DNA of 64,000 nucleotides from an uncultured Candidatus Saccharibacteria bacterium. GTDB lineage: Bacteria > Patescibacteriota > Minisyncoccia > Phycocordibacterales > GWA1-40-21. The stretch lies in assembly GCA_964567825.1 (NCBI GenBank), contig CAZMNX010000001.1, positions 34,775-98,774 on the forward strand, read 5' to 3'. The notes beneath the pieces were generated by a model. The model searched no databases. It had not been told where the DNA came from and worked only from the letters and a program-made list of their open reading frames with translations. Shown here piece after piece: positions 25,607-51,120 of this stretch. Every line of letters starts with the position of its first letter. Positions within the stretch are counted from its first letter, which is position 1. Position numbers and translations under genes: made by a program.

Positions 25607-25618
25607 TAAAATAAAACT

Positions 25619-34805: not shown

Positions 34806-35861
34806 ATGAAAAACAAAATAATTATAAGTATAGTCGCCATTGCACTAATAGTCTTTGGTTTTACAATACAGAGCACAAGAACAGAGACAGCTCCGATAAA
34901 AATCGGTGTTATTCTCCCTCTAAGCGGAGATCTGTCTTTTATTGGCGAGCCGGCTAAGTATGGCGCGGAAATGGCTTTGGAAAATTTCAAAGACACTAAA
35001 CATAAATACGAGTTGGTCTTTGAGGACGATCAGTTTGATGGAAAAAAAGCCGTCACAGCTGCCCAAAAACTAATTTCGGTTGATAAAGTAAATGTCTTGG
35101 TGACCTTTGGTTCATCCGGTGGTAATTCGGTGAAACCACTAGCAGAAACAAATAAAATTCTGCACTTTACTGTCGCCTCGGATCAAAAGATCGCTGATGG
35201 TAAATATAATTTTAACCATTGGACTTCCCCAAAAGAAGAAGTCACCACCATGGTGGCTGAACTTATCAAAAACAATATTAAAACTGTAAGTATTTTGACA
35301 ATGAACCAAGACGGTATGATTTCCACAACCAATGAACTAAAGGAGCAATTAAAAAATACTAATATTCGAATAATTGATGACGAAAAATTTAATGTCGGGA
35401 CAAGAGACTTCAGAACTTTAGCTGCTAAAGTTAAGCTAAATCAACCTGAACAGATCATCATGGTAAACTACTCTCCTGAGCTTGAGATACTTGGTAGACA
35501 AATACGAGAAACTGGCATAAAGGTTCCCATGACGTCCTTCGAGGGCTTAGACGCCACCACCGATCCAAAATTATTTGCTGGCTCCTGGTATTCTACCGCC
35601 AGTGATGTGACAGAAGCCTTTAAAAATACATTCAAAGCTAAGTATAGTGTCGCCCCAATAGTAGGAACGGGTAATGTTCACGACGTTATATCTATGCTTA
35701 TTACAGCGACTGAAAATGTTCGAGGTTCGGTCACAACAGAAAAAATCGCTTCGGAACTATTAAAAATAAAAGACTTTGACGGTTCTATCGGTCGTATCTC
35801 CATGGATCAGAACGGTTCAGTTGTATCTAAGGCAGTCATAAAAACTGTGGTAGCCAAATAA
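34806..35861 (+). CDS. Liv-type (Peripla_BP_6) ABC substrate-binding protein (module 1)
   Basis: N-terminal TM/signal, then IKIGVILPLSGDLSFIGEPAKYGAEMALE, typical of LivJ/K-like SBPs. Confidence 0.7.
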   Translation: MKNKIIISIVAIALIVFGFTIQSTRTETAPIKIGVILPLSGDLSFIGEPAKYGAEMALENFKDTKHKYELVFEDDQFDGKKAVTAAQKLISVDKVNVLVTFGSSGGNSVKPLAETNKILHFTVASDQKIADGKYNFNHWTSPKEEVTTMVAELIKNNIKTVSILTMNQDGMISTTNELKEQLKNTNIRIIDDEKFNVGTRDFRTLAAKVKLNQPEQIIMVNYSPELEILGRQIRETGIKVPMTSFEGLDATTDPKLFAGSWYSTASDVTEAFKNTFKAKYSVAPIVGTGNVHDVISMLITATENVRGSVTTEKIASELLKIKDFDGSIGRISMDQNGSVVSKAVIKTVVAK

Positions 35862-35868
35862 GACACAG

Positions 35869-36672
35869 CTACTCCCGAAGCTCCCCATTCCCCCAGGCGA
35901 TCTCGAAGACCATTTTCATCATATCGTGAATGATTTGGTCTTCGATGATTACCCCGATAATATTTAGACCGCCAAGTTTTACAATTGAAACTTTATTTTT
36001 GCCATAAATAGTAATCTCGGCTTCATAAGGAAACTTTTCGGCTGGTATATAGCGTGCCTTGGGCCACAATTCTTTTTTTATATTCTCAAATACCTCTGGG
36101 CTGTAAGACCGATTCTCTGGTGTGTCAGGAAGAATCCCTCTGGTAGTAATATTCAAACGCTCCTTTGCTTTAATAAAAGCTTTCAACTGTATTGGGGTCA
36201 TAACATTTTTAAATTTATCAGCATTGGAAAAGGCCATCATCTCATAATTACCCTCTCGAGAAACTGCATCATTACAAATATTTAAAATAGTGTCTGGACC
36301 CTCGAAGAATAAAACTTTGGGACGATCGGCCATCAAAGAAAAGATTTCTTCAATATCCGGCAAGATTTTTTCGATTCTCTCTAAACTCGACTTAGCCATT
36401 TCAATTCGACTATTGGAATACTGGGCAAGTTTATGTGGTTTATCGATTTGATAAAATATTTTATTTCTTTTTTCTACTTCATTAACCAAACCTCGAACCG
36501 ATAGTGTGGCCAAAACATTATAAGTCGTGGCCCGCTTTAGGCCACAGTATTCAGCGATTCTGGAAGGATAGGCCCCACCGAGCTCAAGCAAGGACACATA
36601 AACCAAAGCTTCTTTGTCTGTAAAACCTGTACTTTCGAGTTTTTTAACTAGAGATTGATTCTTTATTTGCAT
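35869..36672 (-). CDS. TrmB-family transcriptional regulator (module 2)
   Basis: GFTDKEALVYVSLLELGGAYPSRIAEYCGLKRATTYNVLATLSVRGLV wHTH. Confidence 0.65.
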   Translation of the reverse strand: MQIKNQSLVKKLESTGFTDKEALVYVSLLELGGAYPSRIAEYCGLKRATTYNVLATLSVRGLVNEVEKRNKIFYQIDKPHKLAQYSNSRIEMAKSSLERIEKILPDIEEIFSLMADRPKVLFFEGPDTILNICNDAVSREGNYEMMAFSNADKFKNVMTPIQLKAFIKAKERLNITTRGILPDTPENRSYSPEVFENIKKELWPKARYIPAEKFPYEAEITIYGKNKVSIVKLGGLNIIGVIIEDQIIHDMMKMVFEIAWGNGELRE

Positions 36673-36888
36673 ATAAACAGTATATCAGGTGCCAAATTTA
36701 TTGTCAAACTAAACCGACAAAATAACCCACCTAGGCCTAAATCCTATTAAAATAAAGCTATTTTAGCCTTATTTGTCATTTGCTTCACCTAAAGTATTGA
36801 CAACCGTGTATACTTGTATCAGAACAAGCACGTTGAAATTTCGGTCAAAACAGGCTTATTAATTTAAAAATTAACATTTAAAACATTT

Positions 36889-37977
36889 ATGAAAAAATAT
36901 CTTGGAATTATATTAGCAATTATTGTCGTCATCGTCGGTATCCTAATCTTTAGTCAAAAAGAAACTAAATCACAAACGAGCGAGAAGCAAACGGTAAAAA
37001 TCGGTTTGAGTCTTCCCCTCTCTGGTGGTGTCGCCTTTCTCGGTGAACCAGCTAAGAAAGCAGCCGAGCTGGCCTTGAAGGATGCCGGCAAGACGAAATA
37101 CAATTATGAATTAGTTTTCGAAGACGATCAGTTCAGTCCAAAAATTGCCGCGAGCACAGCAAGTAAACTCATCAACGTGGACAAAGTTTTGGCGATAATC
37201 GAATTCGGTTCTGGTACCGGTAATGCTATCAATAGCATTGCAGAAAAGGGACAGACAGTTGAATTCGCTCTTGCCTCTGATCCAACGGTCGCTAAAGGAG
37301 TGTACAACTACGTTCACTGGACTCCGCCATTCAAGGAGGGACAATTACTGGCACAGGAGTTGATCCAGAGAGGATACAAAAAAGTATCAATTATTGATAC
37401 CAATCATCCCGGTCCTTTAGCGGTTACTGATGCAGTAAAAGAATTTGTAAAAGGTTCTGGTGTAGAGATTGTTTCTTATGATCTAACAAATATTGGAGAG
37501 AAAGATTTTAAAACAATTATTACTAAAATAAAGAAAGCTAACCCAGACATTGTTATTTTAGAGATGTTCTCACCAGAAATTGAAATCGCCGCTCGTCAAA
37601 TGAAAGAGTTGGGTGTAAATATACCCGTTACGTCAGTCGAGACATTTGAATGGAGCAGCAATCCGGAATTGTTTGAAGGTTCCTGGTTCGTCTCAGATTC
37701 AATCGTGCCGAACTTTACCGCTAAGTTTAAGTCAGCTTACGGCACCGATCCACAAGCCGGCTCATCTTACGTCTACGACTTGGTCAGCCTACTCATCAAG
37801 CTTCAAGAGAAATCGGACACCGTGATCGCGCCTAAAGATCTACCGGCGGCCATCACCCAAATGGGTGACTGGAATTCTCCGGTCTTTGGACAGGTAAAGA
37901 TCGACAGTGAAGGTTTCTTCATCACCGAACCATCGGTCAAAATGATCAAGGATGGCAAGGTTATCTCGGCCCAATAA
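36889..37977 (+). CDS. Liv-type ABC substrate-binding protein (module 2)
   Basis: VKIGLSLPLSGGVAFLGEPAKKAAELALKD. Confidence 0.7.
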   Translation: MKKYLGIILAIIVVIVGILIFSQKETKSQTSEKQTVKIGLSLPLSGGVAFLGEPAKKAAELALKDAGKTKYNYELVFEDDQFSPKIAASTASKLINVDKVLAIIEFGSGTGNAINSIAEKGQTVEFALASDPTVAKGVYNYVHWTPPFKEGQLLAQELIQRGYKKVSIIDTNHPGPLAVTDAVKEFVKGSGVEIVSYDLTNIGEKDFKTIITKIKKANPDIVILEMFSPEIEIAARQMKELGVNIPVTSVETFEWSSNPELFEGSWFVSDSIVPNFTAKFKSAYGTDPQAGSSYVYDLVSLLIKLQEKSDTVIAPKDLPAAITQMGDWNSPVFGQVKIDSEGFFITEPSVKMIKDGKVISAQ

Positions 37978-37983
37978 GCCAAC

Positions 37984-38014
37984 AAAAAACCACCCGCATC
38001 ATGGGTGGTTTTTT
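37984..38014. terminator. bidirectional rho-independent terminator (AAAAAACCACCC-GCATCAT-GGGTGGTTTTTTG)
   Basis: Perfect 8-bp stem flanked by A6 and T6, between the convergent SBP2 and livG genes. Confidence 0.7.
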
Positions 38015-38015
38015 G

Positions 38016-38768
38016 TTACTTCCCCAAATACGCCTCGATGACTTCGGGCTTAGACAGGACACTCACGGGCTCACCCTCGGCCAATAGTTTGCCGCTATCT
38101 AAAACGATCACATGGTCGGACAGGTCGCGAATGAGGTCCATATTATGCTCGATCAGCACCACAGTTTTGCCCTGAGTCCGCAATTCCTTTAAAAGACCAG
38201 AAACGATTTGAATCATCTCGGGAAACAGCCCAGCAAAAGGCTCGTCAAAAAAGATCGTATGCAAACCATCATCTTCTCCCAAATCCATCGCCAACACTCG
38301 CCCGATTTCTAATAATTTCCTCTGCCCGTAAGATAGATTGTGAGCGAGTTCATTTCTTTTTTCCCACAAATTCACTTTTTTCAAAACTTGCTCGGCAATA
38401 TCCAGATGAAATTTTTTATGCTTTTCAAAAAGAGATCCGAAGACGCCCCTCGAAGTAATCACAATCAAAATATTGTCCAAAACCGGCATTTGTTCGAACA
38501 AACGCACGTCTTGAAAGGTCCTGGTAATGCCAAAACTGGGTATATCAAAGGCTTTGATTTTTTTCAAAACGGTATGCTCGCCCACTTTCACCAAACCACT
38601 ATCATACGGAGTAAAACCGGTCAGCAAATTCACCAAGGTTGATTTCCCCGACCCATTTGGCCCAATCACGCCGGTGATTTTTCCTTCGGGAAAAGAAATA
38701 GATAGACCGTCCACTGCCTTCACTCCCCCAAAGTGCTTCTTGATATTTTCTGTTTTCACAATCGGCAT
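38016..38768 (-). CDS. livG: branched-chain amino acid-type ABC transporter ATP-binding protein (LivG-like)
   Basis: GPNGSGKST, LSYGQRKLLEIGRVL, IFFDEPFAG; 250 aa. Confidence 0.75.
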   Translation of the reverse strand: MPIVKTENIKKHFGGVKAVDGLSISFPEGKITGVIGPNGSGKSTLVNLLTGFTPYDSGLVKVGEHTVLKKIKAFDIPSFGITRTFQDVRLFEQMPVLDNILIVITSRGVFGSLFEKHKKFHLDIAEQVLKKVNLWEKRNELAHNLSYGQRKLLEIGRVLAMDLGEDDGLHTIFFDEPFAGLFPEMIQIVSGLLKELRTQGKTVVLIEHNMDLIRDLSDHVIVLDSGKLLAEGEPVSVLSKPEVIEAYLGK

Positions 38769-38823
38769 TCATACAGTATAACAAAAAACCATTGACAGCA
38801 AAATCACGTTTGTTATACTTTAA

Positions 38824-39282
38824 CTACTTACGGCCTTCGGGCTCGGAACCACCTTTACAAGAGGTGGTTTCATATTTACGTTCTTTATCATCAATGACGT
38901 CTTTCATCCTGTTTTTTATTTCTAAAAAATTTTCCTCATTAATATAACCGATTTTATCAATCAATCTCTTGCTATCGATTAACTTTATTTGAGAAAGGTT
39001 GACTGTATTCTTGGTCTCAACACTAAAAACATCAAAACTGAAATAGTACTTCCCCAATTTGTGTTGTGAAGTCAAAGAAAGTCCCCAGAAAGTTTCGGCA
39101 TTAAACTTTTTGAATATTAAAACCGGTCTTCTAAATTCATCGCCCTTCCCATCTTGTTCATATCCGACATTCAGACCTAAGTGACACCACCAGACTTCTC
39201 TAGTGCGAAAAAACACATTATCTATGTCTTTCAGATTGATAATCTTTTTCTTCTCATTCCACCGATCAAAATCTTTCCCCAT
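38824..39282 (-). CDS. MazF/PemK-family endoribonuclease toxin-like protein, no adjacent antitoxin ORF
   Basis: VWWCHLGLNVGYEQDGKGDEFRRPVLIF...LSLTSQHK and C-terminal SQIKLIDSKRLIDKIGYI fit the PemK/MazF fold pattern; only 83 nt of non-coding DNA lie upstream. Confidence 0.6.
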   Translation of the reverse strand: MGKDFDRWNEKKKIINLKDIDNVFFRTREVWWCHLGLNVGYEQDGKGDEFRRPVLIFKKFNAETFWGLSLTSQHKLGKYYFSFDVFSVETKNTVNLSQIKLIDSKRLIDKIGYINEENFLEIKNRMKDVIDDKERKYETTSCKGGSEPEGRK

Positions 39283-39365
39283 ATCGCCCGACAGTCTAAC
39301 ACAAGAAAAAAGACAGATTTTAAACTAAAATGTGGATAAATCGAGGGAGTATTTTTTGTGAGGTA

Positions 39366-40517
39366 CTAGTACTTCACCCAGCCATCCTTGGTGTAAGTTT
39401 GAAGATAAGTTTTTCTGTTTGAATTACCCAAATTATCAAATGAAAGCTCCCCAGCCGCACCGTTCATCTTGATCTGACGTAAGTTGTCCGCCACCTCCTT
39501 GGTATTATTTATATCTTTGCTTTTTTCTAGGGCCCATTTTAAAGCATAAACGTCATCATAGGCATAAGTAGCATCGGCAATTAGTAAGTCCACACCATAG
39601 GCTATTTTGTAATTCTTTTGAAACTCAATCGCTTTTATATTATTTGAATCTAAATCATAGTTATTATCTACCACCCTCATCTTTACTAAAGTTTCTTTAA
39701 ATTGCTCATACATAAATGGTAAAACATATACAGTGGAACCCGAATACAATCTCTTGTTATCCAGACCAAAGACTTTCAGTTGTTTGGTTATATTTATAGT
39801 CTCAGACCCTGGAAAACCATAAACCACAATGGCGTCAGGATTAAAAGATTTGATTTTCGCCATTTGAGTCTTAAAATCTAAATCTCCAAAGCTAAACATT
39901 TGATCTAAAAACTGAGAACTAACAGCTTCGGATTTAAGCCCGGCCAGAAAGACCTCGGTATCACCAAAATTTACAGCCATAATCCCCACTTTTTTCATGC
40001 CATCATTATTCAAGGCCTGACCAATAGAACGACCCACTTCCTCCATATCCCAATAATCCCTGAACACGTAGTTACCTGTCCCAACTCGAGAAACGGTGGC
40101 TGTAATATAAAGAACTTTATTCTGTTCCGCCACCGGCGCCGAGGCGAGTGACTGGCTAGAAAAAGCGGTAAAAAGATACCTTACCTCATCTATATTAATT
40201 AACTTTTGTACAGCACTAACAGATTTTGTAACATCGCCCCAATCATCCTCAAAAAGAACTTCCAGTCTCTTTCCATCAACCCCACCATTACCGTTAATTT
40301 CTTTTACGGCTAATTCAATTCCCCTTTTGTATTCAATACCATAAGTAGAAAACTGCCCCGTTAAAGGATAGACAGCTCCGATTTTAATAAAATTATTGTC
40401 GTTTGATTTTGTAACACCAGTCAGGACAGCTAAAATTACTATAACCGTTATCGCCGACCATAAGATGTACCTTGTTTTATTTTTCATCACATGAGTATTG
40501 TGCCACAACATCGCCAT
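39366..40517 (-). CDS. Liv-type ABC substrate-binding protein (module 3)
   Basis: IKIGAVYPLTGQFSTYGIEYKRGIELAVKEINGNGGVDGK. Confidence 0.7.
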   Translation of the reverse strand: MAMLWHNTHVMKNKTRYILWSAITVIVILAVLTGVTKSNDNNFIKIGAVYPLTGQFSTYGIEYKRGIELAVKEINGNGGVDGKRLEVLFEDDWGDVTKSVSAVQKLINIDEVRYLFTAFSSQSLASAPVAEQNKVLYITATVSRVGTGNYVFRDYWDMEEVGRSIGQALNNDGMKKVGIMAVNFGDTEVFLAGLKSEAVSSQFLDQMFSFGDLDFKTQMAKIKSFNPDAIVVYGFPGSETINITKQLKVFGLDNKRLYSGSTVYVLPFMYEQFKETLVKMRVVDNNYDLDSNNIKAIEFQKNYKIAYGVDLLIADATYAYDDVYALKWALEKSKDINNTKEVADNLRQIKMNGAAGELSFDNLGNSNRKTYLQTYTKDGWVKY

Positions 40518-40617
40518 CTAGTCCTTATTTTAGAATAAGCAAACAATACATTTTAATTATAGCTTGTATATAAAGCATATTATGCTATACTAAAGTCGTC
40601 CAAAGTTTGGACTTATT

Positions 40618-41358
40618 ATGAATACGCTAAACAAATTGATCCGGTACGGCCTCAGCAAATTCGAAGCCACCGTATATCTAGACGTCCTTTCCCACCTGGA
40701 TTCATCTGCTTTTGCTATCTATAAAAGAGTTGGGCTACCAAAAACTAGCGTCTATCATATTTTGGAATCGTTAAGAAAACGAGGCCTGGTAGAATCTTGG
40801 AAAAAAAATAACATCCAGCACTTTTCAGCTGGTAGTCCAAAAAGACTTCTATTTGAGCTAAAGGAAAAAGAAGATCTTCTACAATCCCTCGTTCCAGACC
40901 TCACTACTCTTTCCAATCAAGAAAACCAGACCAACTCTGTAAAAATGTACGAGGGAGCGAATAATTTAAAAAAGGTTATGCGGGAGGCATTAGAATATTG
41001 CGCAAAGCATAAAACCAACAGCATGCTAACGGCCGCCACAGATTCCATATCGTCCGATATGCCAAAATTTATGGATGACTGGCTCAAAGAAAGAGAAAAA
41101 ATGAATATCTTTGTAAAAATGCTTATACCTAAAGGCAAAATACCATTAGGCTTTCAGTCAAATAGCCTTCGAGAAACAAAGTTTCTACCAGAAAATTTCT
41201 TCCTACCAGGCATAATAAACATTTATGGCAACCGAGTAGATCTGTTCTCATTCAAGAACAATAAAATAAACTCTGTGGTCATTGATTCCGAAGCCTACAC
41301 CGACCTGTTGCGTAACTTCTTCTTGCTTACTTGGAATAACGCCGAGAAAACAAACTAA
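40618..41358 (+). CDS. TrmB-family transcriptional regulator (module 3)
   Basis: GLSKFEATVYLDVLSHLDSSAFAIYKRVGLPKTSVYHILESLRKRGLV. Confidence 0.65.
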   Translation: MNTLNKLIRYGLSKFEATVYLDVLSHLDSSAFAIYKRVGLPKTSVYHILESLRKRGLVESWKKNNIQHFSAGSPKRLLFELKEKEDLLQSLVPDLTTLSNQENQTNSVKMYEGANNLKKVMREALEYCAKHKTNSMLTAATDSISSDMPKFMDDWLKEREKMNIFVKMLIPKGKIPLGFQSNSLRETKFLPENFFLPGIINIYGNRVDLFSFKNNKINSVVIDSEAYTDLLRNFFLLTWNNAEKTN

Positions 41359-41360
41359 CC

Positions 41361-42392
41361 CTACCTCACACATTTCCCGCCTTCAATCTTAGTCAACACC
41401 AAATCTCGCTCGACGACATTGTTTTTGTTAAAAGTAATGTCGCCATAGACCCCTTCAATTTTGTTTGTTTTGAGATATGACAGAGCCTTTTCGGGATTAT
41501 TATTGGTTGCCTTCATGGCGTAAAGCGCCGTCAAAGTATTTTCGTAGGCTAAACCGTAAAAAGTCGAGTAGCTGGCGCCGAGTTTTGATATAGGATATTC
41601 ATAACTGTAATTACCGTCCAAACTAAATCTCTTATCAGTCAAAACACCAGGAAAAGTACAAGACAGGTAGGTCAGATACGGAACCTTAACTCCCAAGGTC
41701 GACAAATCAGCAAAAACTTGATTAAGAGACGGACCATACCCCACGACAACCAAGACATCTGGTTGAAACTTCTTTATCTTCAAAGCCTCGGTCTTGAAAT
41801 CGGTGGTTGTCTTTTCAAAAGAAAAAGTTGCCACCGCTCGATCCGAGGCAATCGTCTTCTGCCATTCGTTTTTCCAAATGTTTCCAAACTCATCATTGAT
41901 GTTCACGATGGCTACCCTTTTCCAATTCGAATTAGCATTTACCTGCTTACTCACATCATTTAATGACGGCACTAAACCTTGAAACAAATAGGTTTTGTCT
42001 TTAGTCAAACCATAACCAGCCGCATCGGTAATCAAAACGACCTTGGCTTTTTCTGCGAGTGGCGCCACCGCATTGGTCACCCCACTTAAACCAGTCACAG
42101 CAAATTTTACTTGATCTATCTCGAATAGTTTATTAGCTGCCGACACCGCCACCTTAGGATCATTAGCTGAATCCTCTAAAATTAAATCAACTTTTATGCC
42201 AGTTTGCTCTTCAAAATGTCTCACCGCATCTTTTACCCCCTGAGCCGAAAGCTCACCAAAGATCGCTGAAGGGCCAGACAAAGCATACAAAGCACCAATC
42301 TTTAAGGTTCCAGTTTTTGTTCTATTAAAACCGAAATAAACGCCGATTACTAGTAAAGCTACAACGACTAAAGCAATAATTATCTTTTTCAT
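41361..42392 (-). CDS. Liv-type ABC substrate-binding protein (module 4)
   Basis: LKIGALYALSGPSAIFGELSAQGVKDAVRHFEEQTG. Confidence 0.7.
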   Translation of the reverse strand: MKKIIIALVVVALLVIGVYFGFNRTKTGTLKIGALYALSGPSAIFGELSAQGVKDAVRHFEEQTGIKVDLILEDSANDPKVAVSAANKLFEIDQVKFAVTGLSGVTNAVAPLAEKAKVVLITDAAGYGLTKDKTYLFQGLVPSLNDVSKQVNANSNWKRVAIVNINDEFGNIWKNEWQKTIASDRAVATFSFEKTTTDFKTEALKIKKFQPDVLVVVGYGPSLNQVFADLSTLGVKVPYLTYLSCTFPGVLTDKRFSLDGNYSYEYPISKLGASYSTFYGLAYENTLTALYAMKATNNNPEKALSYLKTNKIEGVYGDITFNKNNVVERDLVLTKIEGGKCVR

Positions 42393-42477
42393 ACTTGCAT
42401 ATTATCAAACAAATGGTAACATATATCAATAAGCAGTTTTGTCGGAAAATATCGACATAATTGTGATAATAATCACA

Positions 42478-43221
42478 ATGAATATTCAGGAACTAGAAAA
42501 AATCGGCTTAACAGGCAAGAAAGCGAGAGTTTATTTAGCAGTCCTAGAGGTTGGCCAAGCTACAATTATTCAAATCGCTAGAAAGACCCTGATTAAAAGA
42601 ACGACTCTATATGATCTGGTAGCCGACCTAACAGCCCAAGGCTACTTATCAGAAATTAAAAAAGGTAATAAAAATATTATCATCGCCGAGGATCCTGCGG
42701 TTTTGATTAAAACTTTCGAGAATCGATTGGACGAGGTGAGAGACTTAGCGCCAACTCTATTTAAAATCTTCAACTCCGTCACTTCCCGCCCCCAGATTCG
42801 TTTCTATGAAGGAGTCGAGGGCATAAGGCATATGATGGAAGAGGCTTTGGTAATGAAACAAAAAGAAGTTCACTATTGGGGCCCGGCGGATAATATTATT
42901 GAGATTTTGGGAAATGTTTATATTGATAAATGGTTGAAAAGAAGAGTCCGAGCGGGTATCCAGACTCACGGCCTCCTCACCCAAAATGCCCCACGAGGCT
43001 CAAAACCGTTCCTGAAAACCGATAAAAACGCCTTGCGTGAGGTGCGTTGGCTATCCACCAAAACTATTTTTGATGGCATCCTCTGGCTTTATGATAATAA
43101 AGTGATGTACATCGCTTCGGCTAAGGATTCCTTTGGCTTCATCATCGAAAGTGACAACTTCACCCAATTTATGAAGGTTATTTTCCAAAGTATGTGGGAG
43201 ACAGCGAGGGAGGATAGGTAG
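42478..43221 (+). CDS. TrmB-family transcriptional regulator (module 4)
   Basis: MNIQELEKIGLTGKKARVYLAVLEVGQATIIQIARKTLIKRTTLYDLVADLTAQGYL; the start was moved from 42439 to 42478 by alignment with the paralogs. Confidence 0.65.
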   Translation: MNIQELEKIGLTGKKARVYLAVLEVGQATIIQIARKTLIKRTTLYDLVADLTAQGYLSEIKKGNKNIIIAEDPAVLIKTFENRLDEVRDLAPTLFKIFNSVTSRPQIRFYEGVEGIRHMMEEALVMKQKEVHYWGPADNIIEILGNVYIDKWLKRRVRAGIQTHGLLTQNAPRGSKPFLKTDKNALREVRWLSTKTIFDGILWLYDNKVMYIASAKDSFGFIIESDNFTQFMKVIFQSMWETAREDR

Positions 43222-43223
43222 AA

Positions 43224-43254
43224 CAAAAAACACCCAGGAAGGGGTGTTTTTTGT
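43224..43254. terminator. bidirectional rho-independent terminator (AAAAAACACCC-AGGAA-GGGGTGTTTTTTG)
   Basis: Hairpin flanked by A and T runs, between the convergent regulator-4 and SBP5 genes. Confidence 0.7.
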
Positions 43255-43277
43255 TTACCATAATCAATGTCCCGAGT

Positions 43278-44405
43278 TTAGATTTTTGTAGGGACACCTT
43301 TAACTAGCTTGAAGGCTGATTCAACGATTGGTGCCGCACCGTTATTATCAATAGTCACTAAACCAGTTGAACCTTGATAATTTGAGATTTTAAGGAGACT
43401 AGATTTTACAGCACTCGCAGTAATCTCGCCCTTAATACCCGGCAATACCTTGGTCAACAAAATATTTGTTGCATCGTAGGCTGGGTGTGTGGTCAGAGGA
43501 AGAATTGGACCTCGACCAACTAAAGCCTTAAACTTGGCGTCAAAAGCTGCAGCTTGACCGTTGGTTGCATCAGCATCCCAATAAGCGAAGGTCGTTCCTT
43601 CAGCCTTACCATCTGCCAATTGCTGTGCTATTGGGCTAGTAATAGTACCAGTGGTGTAGAAAGATTGTTTCATTCCTAAATCTCGAGTTTGTTTCATAAT
43701 CAAGCCAGTTTCATCATGACCCAGCAAAACCAAACCCTCAACATTCCCCGTCTTAAGTTTTAATAATTGAGTTCTAAAATCTTTATCTTCATAGTTGAAT
43801 GATTCGATTTGTACTTTACCACCCTTACTTTCAAACTCTTTCTTGAATGAGTTCGCCACAATCGCCATGAAAGTATCTTTGGTTGAATACATAATACCGG
43901 CGCTCTTTTTACCCTCGGCCGCCATCTGATCGGCTAGTGAAATACCAATTGATTCGGTTTCTGTCGCTAAACAAAACACATTTTTGGAAGCATTAGCCAC
44001 CTCCTTATTACAATCCAGCGGATTAATTATTACGACCCCATCCTGAGCCGCCTTATCCATCACCGCGAACAAACCGCCATAACTAGCGACTAAAATAACT
44101 TTTACTTTATCGACGTTCACAAGCTTCTCGTAAGCTGAAACCGTATTCTTGGTTAAGTACTGATCGTCTTCAGAAATTAGCTCGACTTGTCTACCATTTA
44201 CCCCGCCAGCCTTGTTAACATCGGCAACCGCAATTTCCACCGCTTTCACCGCGTCCATACCCAGCACCGCTGATGGACCAGTAAGCGGACCAATGTAACC
44301 AATCTTGATTGGCTCAGTTGTGCCGACAGGTGAAACTCTGCTAAAATACATACTAAGGCCGATAATCACGATTATTAGAACGATAATGCTTAATGTCTTT
44401 TTCAT
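43278..44405 (-). CDS. Liv-type ABC substrate-binding protein (module 5)
   Basis: IKIGYIGPLTGPSAVLGMDAVKAVEIAVADVNKAGGVNG. Confidence 0.7.
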   Translation of the reverse strand: MKKTLSIIVLIIVIIGLSMYFSRVSPVGTTEPIKIGYIGPLTGPSAVLGMDAVKAVEIAVADVNKAGGVNGRQVELISEDDQYLTKNTVSAYEKLVNVDKVKVILVASYGGLFAVMDKAAQDGVVIINPLDCNKEVANASKNVFCLATETESIGISLADQMAAEGKKSAGIMYSTKDTFMAIVANSFKKEFESKGGKVQIESFNYEDKDFRTQLLKLKTGNVEGLVLLGHDETGLIMKQTRDLGMKQSFYTTGTITSPIAQQLADGKAEGTTFAYWDADATNGQAAAFDAKFKALVGRGPILPLTTHPAYDATNILLTKVLPGIKGEITASAVKSSLLKISNYQGSTGLVTIDNNGAAPIVESAFKLVKGVPTKI

Positions 44406-44527
44406 ATAAATTATTTGTTATTAAGATTGATAAACTTGACCGTATATCCATCTTAGCATATAATATATTAATTGTCAACCAAAAAGGGTGACAATAATGA
44501 GTAAAAAGACAAAAAAGGGCTAAAAAT

Positions 44528-45289
44528 ATGAATATTTCCAAAGAAATTCAAAAACTGCTAGACCTCGATTTCACTCCAAATGAGGCTTCCGTCTACTCAA
44601 TCCTGATCCAGAGCGGTTCGACCAAGGCAGGCGTGATAATCAGCAAAACCGGGCTCCATCGTAACCTAGTTTATACCGCTTTGGATCATTTAATTGCCCG
44701 AAAAATCGTCTCGGTTCAGGATTCCAAGAGCGGGCGAGTCTATACCGCTATTTCACCAAACATTTTAATTGAGGAGTATGACCATAAAAAAGAATTGGCC
44801 GAGGAGCTAACAAAAAGTTTTAAACAAAAAAGTTTTATCGGCGATCAAGAAATTTCTGTGCATGAGGGCAATGAAGACTATTTAAAACTTTTGACTAGTG
44901 TGATCAATTCCCTACCCCAAGGCTCAACCAAGCTCGTTTTGGGTACTGGCGGGGCGGATTTTATGCGCCATACCATGTTGTCGATTTGGGACAAATACCA
45001 TGAGGTAGCGAAAAAACAACAGATAAAGATAAAGATGCTCGCTTACGGCGAACAAAGAGGTGCCCTAGAGAAAGTAACGGCCGCCGAAGGAATTTACAAC
45101 ATTAAATACCTGCCAGCTGATACAGAAAACCCCGCTGGTATTCATATTTATCCCGAAATAAATACTGTCTTAAACATTATTTACTCCACTGAATTCCAAC
45201 CAGTTACGGCCATAAAAATCAAAAATAAATCCTTAACCCAGGGTTATCTAAATTTATTCAATAATCTGTGGAAGGAGGGAGAGAAGTAA
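44528..45289 (+). CDS. TrmB-family transcriptional regulator (module 5)
   Basis: LDFTPNEASVYSILIQSGSTKAGVIISKTGLHRNLVYTALDHLIARKIV. Confidence 0.6.
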   Translation: MNISKEIQKLLDLDFTPNEASVYSILIQSGSTKAGVIISKTGLHRNLVYTALDHLIARKIVSVQDSKSGRVYTAISPNILIEEYDHKKELAEELTKSFKQKSFIGDQEISVHEGNEDYLKLLTSVINSLPQGSTKLVLGTGGADFMRHTMLSIWDKYHEVAKKQQIKIKMLAYGEQRGALEKVTAAEGIYNIKYLPADTENPAGIHIYPEINTVLNIIYSTEFQPVTAIKIKNKSLTQGYLNLFNNLWKEGEK

Positions 45290-45335
45290 AATTTGACAGT
45301 AAAATCACACCCGCTATAATGATTGTAATAGACGT

Positions 45336-45369
45336 GAACGGCATCCTAAATGGGTGCCGTTCGTTTTTT
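45336..45369 (+). terminator. rho-independent terminator (GAACGGCA-(11-nt loop)-TGCCGTTC-GTTTTTT)
   Basis: 8-bp stem plus T-run after the regulator-5 stop. Confidence 0.6.
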
Positions 45370-46000
45370 ATAAATCTGTACGTTTTAGGTGCTCTCGGAG
45401 GTAAGTGAAATCCATAAATTTATCCCCGGCAAATCTCCTAATTTCTTTCGCTGTTCTTAGCCCACTAGCTAACACCATAACTTTTTTCTCGTCAACATTA
45501 CGTAAATATTTCAAAACGGGCAAAAAGTCTCCGTCACCAGAAAGTACAAGAACCTGCCCAAACAAACCCCTATCACGCATTAAGTAAAAAGCCATTTCCA
45601 CATCACAATTTGCTTTACGTTTTTTACTACCAGCCTCATCTTCATAAATCTTTACCGGCTTCAAGACAAGTTTGTACTTAAACTCTTCCAGTTTTTTATA
45701 AAAACGGACTTGTTTTAGATGACGTTCGAGAATAGTAAGTTCAACATTAGTAAAACTTTTGCTATTTTTCTCAACATAATCTATAAGGTATTTTTCTAGA
45801 TCCGCCAAAGAAACGGTGTCGTTTGTCAGGTAATCAAAGGAAAACTTGTGAATTTCTACACCTCCAAAATAATAGATTTTGGATACTCCGAACTTACCTC
45901 GGAGATATTTATGAAGTTTTTCAAAATCAATTTTCCAACCCAAACTTTTCTCCCCTCCATAGAATAAATTGGATGCATCAATATAAGCGAATGTTTCCAT
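45368..46000 (-). CDS. NYN-domain (LabA-like, PIN-fold) putative RNase
   Basis: AYIDASNLFYGG ... VLSGDGDFLPVLKYL, characteristic of NYN/LabA domains. Confidence 0.6.
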   Translation of the reverse strand: METFAYIDASNLFYGGEKSLGWKIDFEKLHKYLRGKFGVSKIYYFGGVEIHKFSFDYLTNDTVSLADLEKYLIDYVEKNSKSFTNVELTILERHLKQVRFYKKLEEFKYKLVLKPVKIYEDEAGSKKRKANCDVEMAFYLMRDRGLFGQVLVLSGDGDFLPVLKYLRNVDEKKVMVLASGLRTAKEIRRFAGDKFMDFTYLREHLKRTDL

Positions 46001-46097
46001 ATCGCCAGGCAGTCTAGCACGAGAAAAAAGAGGTCCTGGCGAAGAACTGTGGATAAAAACAACCCTATTTTACAAGGAAGGAGACCTACTACTCGTT

Positions 46098-46964
46098 TTA
46101 CAATTTATACTCCCCAACCAGCCCCTGTGGCCTATATAGCATAAGTAAGACTAAGAGAAGACCGTACACCACTTGGCGCATTTGGGCAGCGACATCGGTG
46201 GGAAAACCAACGAAACGGAGAATTTCGGGGAGAAGAATGAGGAAAATAGCGCCGACGACTGAGCCTTTCAGGCTGGCCATACCGCCGAGGATAATGATAG
46301 CGAGAATAAAGATACTTTCGTTCAAACCAAAAGTGGAGGGGTCAATAAAAGTAATATACGTCGCAAAAAGTCCACCAGCCAAACCGGCCATCCCAGCGGT
46401 AATAATAAAAATAGTTAGTTTAAATAATTTGGTGTTGTAACCAAACACCGATAAGGCTTTCTCGTCTTCTCTAATACCTTTCAAGACTCGGCCAAAAGAG
46501 GATTTGGTGATTCCTAAACTAATTAAATAAACCAGACCCGCACCAACGATCGTTAGAATCAGAAAAGATAAATTACTACTTAATTCAAAGCCAAACAATG
46601 ACGGCCGATTGATACCGGGAATGCCGAGTGGGCCGCGAGTTAAACTTTCCCAATTTAGAAAGATGCTGTAGATAATAATGTTGAAACCAAAAGACACTAA
46701 AGCATAGTAATCATCTTTAAAACGGCTCAAGATCAGGCCAAGGAGGCCCGCAATGAGCCCCGCCAGGATAATCCCCACGAGCAAGGCTAGAAAAAAGTTC
46801 CAGCCATATACCGTCATCAGAATCGCCACAGCATAGGCGCCAATGCCATAAAAAGCGGCGTGAGTGACGGAAAGTAACCCCGTATACCCCACCACCAAAT
46901 TTAGTGAGAGTGCTAGTGGCACATATATTCCGATTAGAATGGCGAGATGAATAAAGTATTCCAT
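46098..46964 (-). CDS. livM: branched-chain amino acid-type ABC transporter permease (LivM-like)
   Basis: VGYTGLLSVTHAAFYGIGAYAVAIL and about 8 TM. Confidence 0.7.
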   Translation of the reverse strand: MEYFIHLAILIGIYVPLALSLNLVVGYTGLLSVTHAAFYGIGAYAVAILMTVYGWNFFLALLVGIILAGLIAGLLGLILSRFKDDYYALVSFGFNIIIYSIFLNWESLTRGPLGIPGINRPSLFGFELSSNLSFLILTIVGAGLVYLISLGITKSSFGRVLKGIREDEKALSVFGYNTKLFKLTIFIITAGMAGLAGGLFATYITFIDPSTFGLNESIFILAIIILGGMASLKGSVVGAIFLILLPEILRFVGFPTDVAAQMRQVVYGLLLVLLMLYRPQGLVGEYKL

Positions 46965-46981
46965 TAGTTTTAGATTATATC

Positions 46982-47728
46982 TTATTTTCTAACTTCAGAC
47001 ACCAGCCACAAGGCACTAAATAAGCCACGCATGGTATTTGAGAACTCTTTACTCTCAACAATAAAACCAAAATTTTCTTGTGGAGTAGAAATAATCGCCA
47101 CTTTATTATCATAAATAAAGATCGTCTCTGTGATGTGTATGCCTTCAGGGGCAATTCTCAATTCTCGCATTATATTAGTTTGGTAGATATCCTCCATTAC
47201 TTCAGTATTTTTCATTCGAATACTCTTGGCAGTAATGTTCTTTTCAACCCTCAGTTTCAACCATTGATCAATATAATCTTTTCCCACAGTGTCGATAACA
47301 TCTTTCCCCGATCCAATATATAAATATTCTCGGCTTTTAACTTTCAAAACATCGTCAAAAATACCCTGAACAGCTTTTTGACCCGAAAAATACCTCATAG
47401 TTGGGCCGTCTGTTTTCTGCCTGAATACTTTCAACAAATCCCCCGACAGTCTTTGGGCAATTACCATCTGAGTCTCAGCTTGTTTTTTCAAAATCTCGGG
47501 AGATTCCGCCTTATATTTAACTTTCTTCGAGCCAGGCACGACCGAAACTAACCCTTTTTCTAATAATTCATCCAGAACGAGATAGCAAGTTGGCCTTTTG
47601 ATTCCTGCTCTACCCGCTAATTCAGAGACAGAGAAAGTGTCCAGTTCTAAGGAGCGGACATAGACGATCGCCTGTCTTTCTGTCAGCCCTAATGATATAA
47701 GTTTATTTTTAGATTCAATAAAATCCAT
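46982..47728 (-). CDS. TrmB-family transcriptional regulator (module 6)
   Basis: GLTERQAIVYVRSLELDTFSVSELAGRAGIKRPTCYLVLDELLEKGLV. Confidence 0.65.
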   Translation of the reverse strand: MDFIESKNKLISLGLTERQAIVYVRSLELDTFSVSELAGRAGIKRPTCYLVLDELLEKGLVSVVPGSKKVKYKAESPEILKKQAETQMVIAQRLSGDLLKVFRQKTDGPTMRYFSGQKAVQGIFDDVLKVKSREYLYIGSGKDVIDTVGKDYIDQWLKLRVEKNITAKSIRMKNTEVMEDIYQTNIMRELRIAPEGIHITETIFIYDNKVAIISTPQENFGFIVESKEFSNTMRGLFSALWLVSEVRK

Positions 47729-47905
47729 ATACCGACCATATTAGCAAAAGCCGAATAATTTGTCAACATCTGTGACAACTTATTGTAAATTAGACAGTAG
47801 CGTTGTTTCTAGCCACATTTTAGTGTTATGTGTCCCAGTTTTTGACACAAACCAAAGAACCTGCTATACTTTAAATAGAAAATTATAAATTATTACATAA
47901 TATAA

Positions 47906-48988
47906 ATGAATAAAACATATAAAATAGCGTTGGCGATTGTAGTCTTGATACTTATTGGATCTGCTTTATTTTGGAACGCGGGCCATAAAAGCAATAATGT
48001 GGCGGTTGGTGCCATATTATCTCTAACTGGTCCGGCTCAATATTTTGGTGAGGAAACCAAAAAGGGCATGGATTTGGCTAACCAGGACGGCGCGGTGAAT
48101 TTTGTTTACGAGGATAGCCGATCGGATGCAACTACGGCGGTCTCGGCTTATAACAAACTTAAATCACAGAATATTAAGGCCGTAGTCCTATCGCTGAGCA
48201 ATGTGGCCGAAGTGGTTGTTCCCCTAACCGAAAAAGATCAGATATTTTCTGTACAAAATCTTGTCTCGGCTAGAAAGGTTCAGGGTGATATGTCGGTACG
48301 GTTTTTCACCTCGGCTGAACAAGAAGCGCCAATCATGGCAAATTTTGCGGCGAGTAACCTGAAATTAAATAGGGTTGCGATATTAGCCAGCACCGATGCC
48401 TACGGTAAGACTTACGCTGAAGTCTTCAAAACTACTTTTGAAAATTTTGGTGGTCAGGTCGTCATAAATGAAAGTTATGACAAGAAAGACCAAGATTTCA
48501 AAACCCAGCTGGCAAAAATAAAGATTTCTGATGCCGAAGGTGTCTATATCATTGGTCTTGATACTCATTTGGTCAGTATATTCAAGCAAATGAATGAGCT
48601 TGGATTAAAACAAATTAAAATGACTAATTGGATAATGGCCTCTCCAGGCGTTCAGGCCAAAGTCGGGGCTAATAGTGAAGGTGTGTATATGACGACCCCA
48701 GATTACTATATTGCCGGCAATAAAAAAGTGGCTGATTTTACCGAAGCTTATCAGAAGAAATATGGAACGCTCCCAAGTGCTTACTCGGCTATCGGTTACG
48801 ATACAACTAGTTTGTTTAGGGAAGCAGTAAAGGGCGCAAAAAGCTCTCAGGATATTCAGAATAATTTCAAAAATATCAAGAACTTTGACGGCTTGATGGG
48901 TAAATTAAATGTAAATGAAAAGGGAGAAATAACCATTCCGCTTATTCCAGCCAAGATGGAAGGTGGAAAGATGGTTGTGATAAAATAA
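47906..48988 (+). CDS. Liv-type ABC substrate-binding protein (module 6)
   Basis: VAVGAILSLTGPAQYFGEETKKGMDLANQ. Confidence 0.7.
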   Translation: MNKTYKIALAIVVLILIGSALFWNAGHKSNNVAVGAILSLTGPAQYFGEETKKGMDLANQDGAVNFVYEDSRSDATTAVSAYNKLKSQNIKAVVLSLSNVAEVVVPLTEKDQIFSVQNLVSARKVQGDMSVRFFTSAEQEAPIMANFAASNLKLNRVAILASTDAYGKTYAEVFKTTFENFGGQVVINESYDKKDQDFKTQLAKIKISDAEGVYIIGLDTHLVSIFKQMNELGLKQIKMTNWIMASPGVQAKVGANSEGVYMTTPDYYIAGNKKVADFTEAYQKKYGTLPSAYSAIGYDTTSLFREAVKGAKSSQDIQNNFKNIKNFDGLMGKLNVNEKGEITIPLIPAKMEGGKMVVIK

Positions 48989-49008
48989 GTATCTTCACAA
49001 ATAAAATA

Positions 49009-49043
49009 ACAAAAAACTAGCCTGTAATGTGGGCTAGTTTTTT
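49009..49043. terminator. bidirectional rho-independent terminator (AAAAAACTAGCC-TGTAATGTG-GGCTAGTTTTTTG)
   Basis: Perfect stem with A6/T6 flanks, between the convergent SBP6 and SBP7 genes. Confidence 0.7.
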
Positions 49044-49069
49044 GTTATCTTAGATCCTATTAAACGCTA

Positions 49070-50200
49070 TTACTCCCCCAACTTCACAAACTGACCGTCT
49101 TTTACCGTCTTCATAAAGATGTTTCTGGTCACGTCTCCGTTTTGATCAAAACTAAATTTACCAGAAGCACCGTCGAAATCTTTTATTCCGAGGAGAGCTT
49201 GTTTAATTTTGTCAGTATCAGTTGCTCCAGCCTCATCTATTGCCAAAGCTATAACTTTAAGAATGTCGTGTCCAGAAGCGACGAAAAAGTCCGCTGTTTT
49301 ACCCGCACCACGTACTCGATCTGCAAAACCTTTTGAAATTACGGAATCAGACTCGTTATACATGAATGGGTAAATTATTCCCTCGATCTCTTTTGGATAT
49401 TGTTTGAGCAAGGCACCGTTTTCTGTCGCCCAAGTAGAAACATATTGAGCCTTAATACCTAGCTGATTAGCCTGAGAAATCAAAAGTCCGATAGAAGGCC
49501 CAGAGTTATGAATATCAAAAATAACATCTGGGTTTTTTGGTTTAATTCTTGTCAGCTCGGTGCGCACATCCAAACCAGGCGAGGCAAATTGCTCATCCGC
49601 CACCACCTGGCCACCAAGCTTCTCAAACTCCGCTTTAAAATCGGTATAATGTTCTTGAGTAAAAGCCGCGGTTACCCTAGCAAAAGCCACGGTCTCTACC
49701 CCACTCTCCTTTAGATAGGAAGCTAAAGGTTTAACAAGTTCTGCCGTTGTGGGTATTAACCTAAACATATAGTCGTCCTTAGTAAAGACATCTAGAGATG
49801 AGTTTGGCGAAATTACAATAATTTTCTTTTCGGTAGTATAAGGCAATATTGTCAAAGTGGTTCCATTCCAGGAATCACCGATAATCACCTTCACACCATC
49901 AACGTCTATCAGTTTTTTAGCAACGGTCAGCGCAGTGGTATTATCGGTTTTACTATCCTCAATAATCAAACTAACTTTTTGACCATCAATACCGCCATTA
50001 GCGTTTATACCAGCCAAGGCTAATTGCAAACCATTCACCAATTGCTCGCCAAAATAAGCTCCTGGGCCAGTCAGAGAGGCAATAACACCAATCTTTAACT
50101 CACCCTTATTACTTGGCTTATTAAATAAGCCAAGACCAATGATAGCAATGACCACCAGCACTATTCCTAATATTAACCATTTCTTATTCTTATTTTCCAT
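49070..50200 (-). CDS. Liv-type ABC substrate-binding protein (module 7)
   Basis: LKIGVIASLTGPGAYFGEQLVNGLQLALAGINANGGIDG. Confidence 0.7.
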   Translation of the reverse strand: MENKNKKWLILGIVLVVIAIIGLGLFNKPSNKGELKIGVIASLTGPGAYFGEQLVNGLQLALAGINANGGIDGQKVSLIIEDSKTDNTTALTVAKKLIDVDGVKVIIGDSWNGTTLTILPYTTEKKIIVISPNSSLDVFTKDDYMFRLIPTTAELVKPLASYLKESGVETVAFARVTAAFTQEHYTDFKAEFEKLGGQVVADEQFASPGLDVRTELTRIKPKNPDVIFDIHNSGPSIGLLISQANQLGIKAQYVSTWATENGALLKQYPKEIEGIIYPFMYNESDSVISKGFADRVRGAGKTADFFVASGHDILKVIALAIDEAGATDTDKIKQALLGIKDFDGASGKFSFDQNGDVTRNIFMKTVKDGQFVKLGE

Positions 50201-50372
50201 GTAATTTATAAATCTTAATTAATAACAACCCTCGACATAGATAAGGATACCATGTTATAATATATTAGTCACATTTGTCTTTACACAAATTGAAGCTTGC
50301 AAAAAAGCCTTTTGTAATATAGACTTATTTAGTCGATATTTTGTCTTTTATTTCCGACATATCCAAGAAAAA

Positions 50373-51119: not shown

Positions 51120-51120
51120 A

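Follow-up and report, generated by a model that had tools for sequence, protein, structure and literature searches.

MazF is the textbook type II toxin, and type II modules such as MazEF and PemIK have an adjacent, co-transcribed gene for a MazE or PemI antitoxin with the AbrB or ribbon-helix-helix fold. Here we describe a mazF/pemK-like gene that has no such neighbor. It lies in a 64-kb stretch of DNA, which we will call the window, from an uncultured Candidatus Saccharibacteria bacterium (contig CAZMNX010000001.1 of assembly GCA_964567825.1). A small structured RNA gene converges on this mazF, and the two genes appear to form a compact cassette of ~0.55 kb. We infer that the toxin is neutralized by an RNA antitoxin, by one mechanism or another, and we put the probability of this at roughly 0.65.

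The toxin resembles those of MazEF and PemIK in that it belongs to PF02452 by both sequence and fold, and its catalytic arginine and threonine align with theirs. In contrast to those systems, the window's locus has neither a MazE/PemI gene nor a two-gene operon; its partner appears to be a convergent non-coding RNA. Also, proteins of the window's family have an additional helix at the N terminus, which is conserved, and their β1-β2 loop is longer and highly conserved. Makarova et al. (2009) speculated that the missing partners of solo toxins could be small RNAs (PMC2701414). And in Myxococcus xanthus, the solitary toxin MazF-mx is neutralized by the transcription factor MrpC (PMC4803016). Like the gene for MazF-mx, the window's mazF is not adjacent to a mazE, but the surrogate antitoxin of MazF-mx is a distal protein, while that of the window's family would be the product of a linked RNA gene.

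Among type I systems, txpA/RatA and bsrG/SR4 from Bacillus subtilis have convergent antisense RNAs that overlap the 3' end of the toxin gene. The window's locus is similar: its candidate antitoxin, a small RNA (sRNA), is encoded in cis, is predicted to have its own promoter, is convergent, and would be antisense to the toxin's transcript at its 3' end. However, type I toxins are small hydrophobic membrane peptides, usually of under 60 amino acids (SymE and RalR are rare exceptions), while the window's toxin and its relatives are predicted to be soluble RNases with the MazF fold and 130–152 amino acids. And unlike type I antitoxins, the window's sRNA has a structured 5' domain whose sequence is conserved.

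The Rfam pemK RNA motif is a Firmicutes motif that lies upstream of pemK genes. Both this motif and the window's element are structured RNAs that are tied to pemK/mazF, but the window's element is downstream and antisense and has no match in Rfam. Type III systems (ToxIN, CptIN, and TenpIN; PMC8860590) combine an endoribonuclease of the Kid/MazF class with an RNA antitoxin, as we propose for the window. However, type III antitoxins are encoded as tandem repeats on the strand of the toxin gene and upstream of it, with a terminator in between, and the toxin processes them, while the RNA that we describe is, in all loci, a single copy that lies downstream of the toxin gene on the other strand. 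Furthermore, type III toxins fall outside of PF02452 and the window's toxin falls inside it.

Finally, the Campylobacter plasmid pVir has a PF02452 protein with the motif FDxWNxxKK (pVir0047), followed by a convergent and highly expressed sRNA (CJpv3) that ends in two adjacent hairpins. CJpv3 differs from the window's RNA in having an extra 5' hairpin, and the pVir pair is plasmid-borne. In the literature that we searched, we found no account of MazF in Patescibacteria, nor of any MazF clade that is paired with a convergent, conserved sRNA.

The gene encodes a MazF homolog

The gene and the parts of its 152-amino-acid product are:

38824..39282, minus strand: mazF/pemK-like toxin gene; an open reading frame (ORF) of 152 amino acids with an ATG start and a tail that probably arose by read-through; identified by Pfam, by AlphaFold2 with Foldseek, and by 77 homologs.
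39202..39282, minus strand: family-specific N-terminal segment (residues 1–27) with the motif KDFDxWNxKKK; from conservation and a predicted helix at residues 5–17.
38896..39201, minus strand: PemK/MazF domain (residues 28–129); Pfam envelope, with the loop GxNxGxEQDG, R52-P53, T71, and S97-Q98 conserved.
38827..38880, minus strand: C-terminal tail (residues 135–152), RKYETTSCKGGSEPEGRK; apparently the translated complement of the sRNA gene, after loss of the family's stop codon.

A first-pass annotation of this DNA had described a MazF/PemK-like core, and this is confirmed by the Pfam match and the predicted fold. The protein matches PF02452 (PemK_toxin) with 39.4 bits (E = 7.9e-10, residues 28–129), as compared to Pfam's curated cut-off of 23.1 bits; a search of the 152-residue protein against NCBIfam gave no match. 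The alignment to the sequences of solved MazF/EndoA proteins is weak (E ~0.05) but consistent: R52-P53 aligns to R25-P26 of B. subtilis MazF, T71 aligns to T48, and SQIKLIDSKRL aligns to EQIRTIDKQRL. R52-P53 does not vary in an alignment of 31 sequences or across 75 sequences, and T71 is at least 90% conserved among the 31. An AlphaFold2 model built from 75 family sequences (mean predicted local distance difference test score, or pLDDT, of 80.8) has a helix at residues 5–17, the MazF β barrel, a C-terminal helix at 116–131, and a disordered end at 138–152. The top 50 Foldseek matches to this model are all MazF, MoxT, or EndoA structures, with a probability of 1.00 and target TM-scores of 0.62–0.78; they include the MazF proteins of S. 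aureus, B. subtilis, and M. tuberculosis. As judged by sequence and by the predicted fold, the product is a genuine homolog of the MazF/PemK endoribonucleases, with Arg52 and Thr71 aligned to the catalytic residues.

The first-pass annotation had also described an N-terminal extension of 35 residues. Relative to the Pfam domain, the extension is ~27 residues, and relative to B. subtilis MazF it is ~22. Nor is it special to this copy, as KDFDxWNxKKK is found across the family and also in homologs from Campylobacterota plasmids. Within it, W8 and K12 do not vary at all among 75 sequences, K3 and F5 are conserved in at least 90% of them, and the predicted helix has block-mean pLDDT values of 73–85. 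The loop GxNxGxEQDG, R52-P53, S97-Q98, and R106 are as conserved across the family as this N-terminal motif is. At the other end of the protein, the 18-residue tail (residues 135–152) had been overlooked; we return to it below.

There is no sign of a protein antitoxin

The 83-nucleotide (nt) gap upstream of mazF (39283–39365) contains no ORF of at least 25 amino acids on the minus strand, as had been noted before, and the 55-nt downstream gap contains no ORF. We searched for distal antitoxin genes within the 64-kb window: none of its 14 small free-standing ORFs is antitoxin-like, and there is no second mazF. To see what lies near the relatives of this gene, we clustered all ORFs of at least 40 amino acids within 1.2 kb of mazF in ~85 loci, and no neighboring ORF was conserved. 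The largest cluster had members in just 7 of the ~85 loci, and the top three clusters were largely second copies of mazF. The sequences upstream of mazF have nothing in common between loci. PADLOC gave no meaningful match to a defense system; its sole hit was at noise level (E = 0.035, to a type II methyltransferase model). We therefore rejected a protein antitoxin that is upstream, downstream, or elsewhere in the window. The earlier statement that the toxin has no antitoxin is correct for proteins, in that we found nothing like MazE or PemI in the window and nothing conserved within 1.2 kb of mazF in the ~85 relatives, but it missed a convergent sRNA gene that overlaps the 3' end of the ORF.

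One explanation for these results is that this MazF is functionally solitary. It might be held in check by its own N-terminal helix, which bears a conserved Phe and a conserved Trp, by a distal or unrelated protein, or by low expression; the downstream element would then be a terminator, an insulator, or an unrelated regulatory RNA. There are precedents in MazF-mx with MrpC (PMC4803016) and in the many solo toxins of genome surveys (PMC2701414), and our view of this genome spans 64 kb. On the other hand, the genomic context of mazF is different in every locus, so no partner is conserved nearby. The properties of the downstream element, which we describe next, also bear on this explanation.

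A structured sRNA gene converges on mazF

The predicted RNA gene in the window comprises:

38792–38819, plus strand: promoter, TTGACA-16-TATACT with TG extension; from a promoter scan, with 11/12 consensus matches plus the TG.
38826..38877, plus strand: predicted sRNA of ~52 nt, with a leader, hairpin H1, hairpin P1, and a U-rich 3' end; its ends are inferred from the promoter and the U-tract.
38832–38843, plus strand: H1, GGCC-UUCG-GGCU; from the fold of the predicted sRNA.
38845–38871, plus strand: P1, 12 base pairs; from the fold of the predicted sRNA.

In essentially all loci, this element follows mazF at a constant position. Read in the direction opposite to mazF, it consists of TTGAC(A/T), 16–18 nt, TG-n-TATA(C/A)T, ~6 nt, and (U)ACAAA(U/C)GG, followed by H1 (GGC-UUCG-GCC), a linker of 1–3 nt, P1, and then either a U-run or a linker with a second terminator hairpin. 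The leader sequence is UACAAAUGG. In the window, the sRNA promoter is the strongest promoter-like site within the 900 nt that we scanned. A promoter with at least 9/12 matches is present in 71 of 81 relatives, 44 with the TG, and the promoter columns are conserved in the alignment. The predicted window RNA (~38826–38880) folds into H1 and P1 with a minimum free energy of −21.6 kcal/mol (z = −5.2 versus shuffles).

We found P1 in 82 of 82 loci, and its 5' arm comes in 59 different versions. A GNRA loop caps P1 in 52 loci, or in 58 if we include six CCGCAA loops, and a UUCG loop caps it in 3. Conversely, the UUCG tetraloop of H1 is replaced by GAAA or GCAA in three loci (L012, L055, and L077). 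The leader and H1 are almost the same even in loci with proteins that are just ~40% identical, while P1 varies freely.

Base changes within the predicted structure tend to preserve pairing. In raw slices of 98 nt, MAFFT misaligned P1 and RNAalifold found no structure, so we used a trimmed alignment and a covariance model instead. In a MAFFT alignment of 45 sequences with the structure specified by hand, there were 105 double-change cells, versus 34.8 in shuffles (0/500 shuffles reached the observed value), and 87% of cells were paired, versus 67% when columns were shuffled and 33–52% when the partners were slid. RNAalifold independently predicted P1, with compensatory changes in 7/7 pairs. An alignment fitted to the covariance model gave 202 double-change cells versus 60 in shuffles, but this alignment is biased towards the structure. 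The window itself matches the covariance model at 38820–38875 on the plus strand (16.7 bits, E = 0.014; these E-values are rough).

The structure also suggests which strand would be transcribed. Across the pairs we counted 38 G-U cells but only 16 A-C cells (p = 0.004). And the tetraloops make sense only if the RNA is antisense to mazF; in the mazF sense, their sequences would be CGAA and UUGC. A conserved outward-facing promoter, a conserved leader, UUCG and GNRA tetraloops, and wobble pairs that suit only one strand would all be superfluous in a plain terminator, which argues against the idea that MazF is solitary and that this element merely ends its transcript.

We also considered that the sRNA strand might encode a small protein, and rejected this: the would-be ATG alternates with ACG, the changing hairpin lengths shift the frame, and an antisense ORF is common to three close relatives only. 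Nor does the RNA belong to a described family. Searches of Rfam, including its pemK motif, gave only noise-level matches at E-values of up to 10 (in window positions 38000–40000 and in L070, 3300–3560), and at the gathering score Rfam found nothing except transfer RNAs (tRNAs) in 14 loci. So this well-supported structured RNA family is an addition to the non-coding RNAs of the Patescibacteria (the candidate phyla radiation), which are poorly charted.

mazF and the RNA gene occur together

Of the 84 relative loci, 80 have a match to the covariance model where it is expected, antisense to mazF. Divergent versions are visible by eye in the remaining four: L005, with a CCC-UUCG-GGG hairpin; L066; L071; and L078, whose contig ends inside the element. 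All 92 model matches within the 84 loci are on the strand antisense to mazF, and the extra matches mostly belong to second copies of mazF. Counting the four divergent versions, we found no copy of mazF without the RNA gene among the loci we examined.

Because this first set of loci was picked through mazF, we also searched in the other direction. The exact 18-mer TACAAATGGCTTCGGCCY was found in at least 120 stretches of metagenome contigs, and we retrieved 80 loci. Among the matches listed, 68 of the 80 retrieved loci have a convergent gene of the mazF family, which starts a median of 58 nt downstream. If we consider, again among the matches listed, the 68 loci with sufficient flanking sequence, then 63 carry the convergent mazF and only 5 lack it. 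The sRNA copies without an adjacent mazF include L039 (4311–4359), L041 (2062–2102), and L011 (2891–2939), as well as copies in L107, L118, L164, L167, and L169; these may be orphan antitoxins or remnants.

The RNA is thus found without mazF, but mazF was not found without the RNA, an asymmetry that one would expect between an antitoxin and its toxin. Far from being a solitary orphan, as the first-pass annotation had it, this mazF belongs to a family that is paired with a convergent structured sRNA almost without exception. Since hundreds of genomes, mostly from Patescibacteria, carry the same pair, the RNA gene is likely to be the antitoxin, as far as can be judged from genome sequences. Conversely, a linkage that is reciprocal and nearly absolute, with exceptions in one direction only, is not expected if MazF is functionally solitary, and we consider the solitary explanation to be unlikely.

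The pair is widespread. A search of 5.8 billion proteins identified 77 relatives, mostly of 127–134 amino acids; the few with a source name are proteins from metagenome-assembled genomes of the Patescibacteria group or Magasanikiibacteriota (we used the taxonomic labels of these genomes as deposited). In a scan of one genome per species, we confirmed 496 mazF loci, and the best 80 of these 496 are almost entirely from Patescibacteria (Saccharibacteria, Paceibacterota, Parcubacteria, Yanofskybacteria, and others). We rejected a phage origin, as we found only 2 loci among 2.9 million viral contigs. The relatives of mazF lie in unrelated contexts: between yebC and ruvC, after gyrB, beside genes with LamG domains, or among genes for aminoacyl-tRNA synthetases. 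So the window's location within an array of transporter genes, which had been thought unusual, is just one setting among many.

This distribution raises the possibility that the pair is not a toxin-antitoxin module at all. Instead, MazF might be a domesticated and non-toxic RNase, and the sRNA its substrate, cofactor, or regulator, in a dedicated ribonucleoprotein or RNA-processing system with a role in housekeeping or defense. This would fit with the strong conservation of specific elements in both the RNA and the protein, with chromosomal loci in the reduced genomes of so many species (the 496 loci are from species representatives), and with rarity in viral contigs. However, the pair behaves like a mobile selfish module: it is inserted in unrelated contexts, is duplicated within loci, has orphan RNA copies, and is plasmid-borne in Campylobacterota. 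Furthermore, the catalytic residues of toxic MazFs are retained. We think that a processing system is quite improbable.

In the window, the ORF runs through the RNA gene

In most relatives, the element that encodes the tail of the window's protein lies outside of the ORF, 37–47 nt past the stop codon. In the close relatives L010, L011, and L002, the exact position of the window's CGT is occupied by TAA, and the AAATATGAAACC DNA comes next, as it does in the window. Therefore, as these comparisons indicate, the window's tail is the product of read-through after a stop codon was lost, and the ORF now continues through the RNA gene. Consistent with this, residues 138–152 of the tail have pLDDT below 50 and are predicted to be disordered.

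A few distant relatives also have C-terminal tails, which end in a similar motif, G(G)(S)EPEG. These tails are encoded by a variable hairpin, with compensatory changes within it, and then GAGCCCGAAGGC. We considered whether GGSEPEG might be a conserved peptide, but in most relatives this DNA is found past the stop codon, without regard to frame, and it folds into hairpins that covary. We also rejected a tRNA-like or att-site fragment at the 3' end of mazF: no tRNA was called there, and the hairpin loops of the relatives are not anticodon-like.

Similar pairs on Campylobacterota plasmids

By searching the proteins of plasmid records, we found homologs of the window's MazF in Campylobacter, Helicobacter, and Nitratiruptor. 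These are 31–43% identical and have the FDxWNxxKK segment, and their PF02452 domain starts at residue 26–28. In Campylobacter jejuni 81-176, the homolog is the 405-nt pVir gene CJJ81176_pVir0047, whose product is 35% identical, matches PF02452, and has the same N-terminal motif. Opposite to this gene is the sRNA CJpv3 (31119–31043, 77 nt), which was detected by Northern blotting (Dugar et al. 2013; PMC3656092 Table S12) and which ends 5 nt from the stop codon of pVir0047. The step height at the start site of CJpv3 is 16164, as compared to 28 for pVir0047's own start site (PMC3656092 Table S5); the leader of the pVir0047 messenger RNA (mRNA) is 26 nt. By our folding, CJpv3 forms three hairpins, and the last two are adjacent, like H1 and P1 of the window's RNA. 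The homologs from Nitratiruptor and H. suis are followed by comparable two-hairpin elements after their stop codons. The covariance model that we built from the window's family scores none of these Campylobacterota RNAs.

By analogy to its positional equivalent in C. jejuni, which is abundantly transcribed, the window's sRNA is probably transcribed in its own host. And our proposal suggests a candidate function for CJpv3, an abundant and Northern-validated sRNA of the virulence plasmid pVir.

Shen et al. (2016, PMID 27291507, as cited in PMC7826846 and PMC10470494) reported a type I system from pVir, cjrA/cjpT. Its toxin, cjpT, may be either pVir0047 or the 41-amino-acid pVir0034, so cjrA/cjpT is possibly related to the window's pair. 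If the pair of Shen et al. is pVir0047/CJpv3, then an RNA has already been shown to neutralize a MazF-like toxin, and the window's family is a new and far larger branch of that system; if their toxin is pVir0034, then the MazF-sRNA pair is uncharacterized. pVir0034 is a hydrophobic ORF that is convergent with another Northern-validated sRNA, CJpv2 (L215, pVir 24300–26600, at ~1185–1310 on the minus strand). pVir0034/CJpv2 looks like a classical type I pair, and it may be the published cjrA/cjpT.

On a Nitratiruptor plasmid, we noticed a 62-amino-acid ORF just downstream of the mazF homolog and its hairpin element, beside a replication gene (L213, 1655–1843, plus strand). It has weak similarity to ribbon-helix-helix proteins. 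This ORF may encode a copy-control protein, or a protein antitoxin in the Nitratiruptor lineage.

How the RNA might neutralize MazF

We used a simple search for terminators to sort the loci by architecture; 21 loci were not classified by this rule. In 48 loci, a separate hairpin and U-run straddles the stop codon of mazF. The sRNA would be ~80–92 nt in these loci and would overlap the last 25–31 nt of the mazF coding sequence (median 28). The straddling hairpin reads as a terminator for mazF too, that is, as a bidirectional terminator. In another 11 loci, which include the window's closest relatives, P1 is followed directly by a U-run, and the sRNA (~47–61 nt) ends ~3 nt before the stop codon, so it would be complementary to the 3' untranslated region (UTR) of mazF. 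In the window, where the ORF now includes the RNA gene, the entire RNA is complementary to the last 17 codons of mazF.

If the sRNA acts by pairing with mazF mRNA, then this built-in overlap must be what it uses. We considered whether the core of the sRNA might instead pair in trans with the 5' region of mazF or with its coding sequence, and rejected this, because the predicted pairing with the cognate mazF was no better than with non-cognate mazFs (p = 0.68 and p = 0.77, respectively).

The mechanism that we favor, tentatively, is antisense control of mazF, as in type I systems. The sRNA would take the place of the missing MazE protein. It would match the 3' end of the mazF transcript with perfect complementarity, along the whole 52-nt RNA in the window and in its closest relatives, and via the shared terminator hairpin at the end of the coding sequence in most other relatives. 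Pairing would trigger the decay of the toxin's mRNA, and an excess of the short-lived sRNA would keep the toxin off. Antisense action would also explain why the two genes are strictly convergent and abutting.

Several observations weigh against our proposal, or against the antisense form of it. First, the near-invariance of the leader and the UUCG hairpin is not explained by antisense pairing alone and is unexpected for a purely antisense antitoxin. Second, in the loci where P1 is the predicted terminator, pairing would require that transcription of mazF read through into the 3' UTR. Third, convergent genes with a shared terminator are common in compact genomes, and the overlap may be only economical. 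Fourth, the promoter, start site, and terminator are predictions in a lineage of Patescibacteria, and the window's own match to the covariance model is modest (16.7 bits). Finally, the likeness to the Campylobacterota RNAs is in position and architecture only, and homology of the RNAs across these phyla is unproven.

So we also considered that the sRNA might act on the protein, as in type III systems. In the common architecture, the 5' domain of the sRNA is invariant and yet lies beyond the bidirectional terminator, outside of the expected mazF transcript, so a conserved partner must read this domain. The conservation suggests that the partner is most plausibly MazF itself, with its family-specific N-terminal helix and its substrate loop. 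As a decoy or pseudo-substrate, the leader and the UUCG hairpin would attach to the MazF dimer, whose RNA-binding surface would consist of the N-terminal helix and the unusually conserved β1-β2 loop (GxNxGxEQDG). This could explain why the leader and H1 hardly change at ~40% protein identity while P1 drifts, and why the best-conserved features of the protein are the substrate-binding loop and the N-terminal helix, both of which are specific to the RNA-carrying family. It also fits with the lack of cognate-specific pairing between the sRNA's core and the rest of the mazF mRNA. Another point in its favor is that ToxN and other type III toxins fold like Kid and MazF. However, a purely protein-binding RNA would not need to be always convergent with its toxin gene and abutting it. 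And unlike the known type III systems, these RNAs have no tandem repeats and no sign of sites for processing by the toxin. Overall, we consider action on the protein to be only slightly less likely than antisense control, and neither mechanism by itself to be more likely than not.

A further possibility is that the pair represents a distinct class of module, a hybrid of types I and III: a single-copy sRNA would overlap the toxin's transcript and would also bind MazF via the leader and UUCG hairpin, gripped by the N-terminal helix. Such a hybrid would be abundant in Patescibacteria and would have plasmid-borne cousins in Campylobacterota. This is a speculative scheme, and we consider it less likely than not.

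If our proposal is correct, then a large clade of MazF proteins has an RNA in place of MazE, which would blur the classification of toxin-antitoxin systems into types I, II, and III. RNA partners would also help to explain the long-noted excess of solo toxins in surveys of genomes. And annotation pipelines that label such genes as orphan "type II toxins" would be missing half of the module.

Genomic setting and other features

The gene upstream of mazF encodes a binding protein of the Peripla_BP_6 family (39366–40517, minus strand). The downstream gene encodes an ABC ATPase, as previously annotated (38016–38768, minus strand). These neighbors are part of a long array (34806–53127) of Liv-type Peripla_BP_6 genes, each paired with a divergent or adjacent gene for a TrmB-family regulator. 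Besides the one ATPase gene, the array contains a BPD_transp_2 permease gene (46098–46964), and the mazF-sRNA cassette sits between the binding-protein gene and the ATPase gene. The covariance model has a second, weak match within the array, at 50268–50321 on the minus strand (20.2 bits), in an AT-rich gap that separates a TrmB gene from a binding-protein gene. This match has no convincing promoter and no mazF nearby, and it may be a chance match or a decayed orphan copy.

Upstream of mazF, we noticed two short features by eye:

39293..39301, minus strand: possible extended −10 box of mazF, TGTTAGACT, ending 10 nt before the ATG; tentative.
39331..39339, minus strand: perfect 9-mer DnaA box, TTATCCACA.

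A scan for consensus promoters did not recover the candidate −10 box. Across ~79 loci, a −10-like box lies 4–14 nt ahead of the ATG in 44% of mazF genes, versus 30% of control ORFs, which is a weak enrichment (p = 0.027). These boxes may hint at very short leaders. We make no claim that the mRNA of mazF is leaderless, given the weak enrichment and the 26-nt leader in C. jejuni.

Among 79 relatives, 16 have 9-mers like the DnaA box (up to one mismatch to TTATCCACA, in either orientation) at a fixed position just upstream of the −35 box of the sRNA promoter. In total, there are 18 such 9-mers near the sRNA promoter, where 2.2 were expected; they lie 44 to 54 nt beyond the sRNA core (for instance in L020, L048, and L014). 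The window differs from these relatives, as its perfect box is upstream of mazF instead of the sRNA promoter. The cassette may be linked to DnaA or to another factor.

Five loci (L004, L013, L014, L020, and L083) have two mazF-sRNA cassettes within a few kb. And in three loci, the cassette adjoins a small ORF of the GIY-YIG type, with 84–111 amino acids (L004, 3668–3928; L016, 3451–3786; and L020, 3674–3928).

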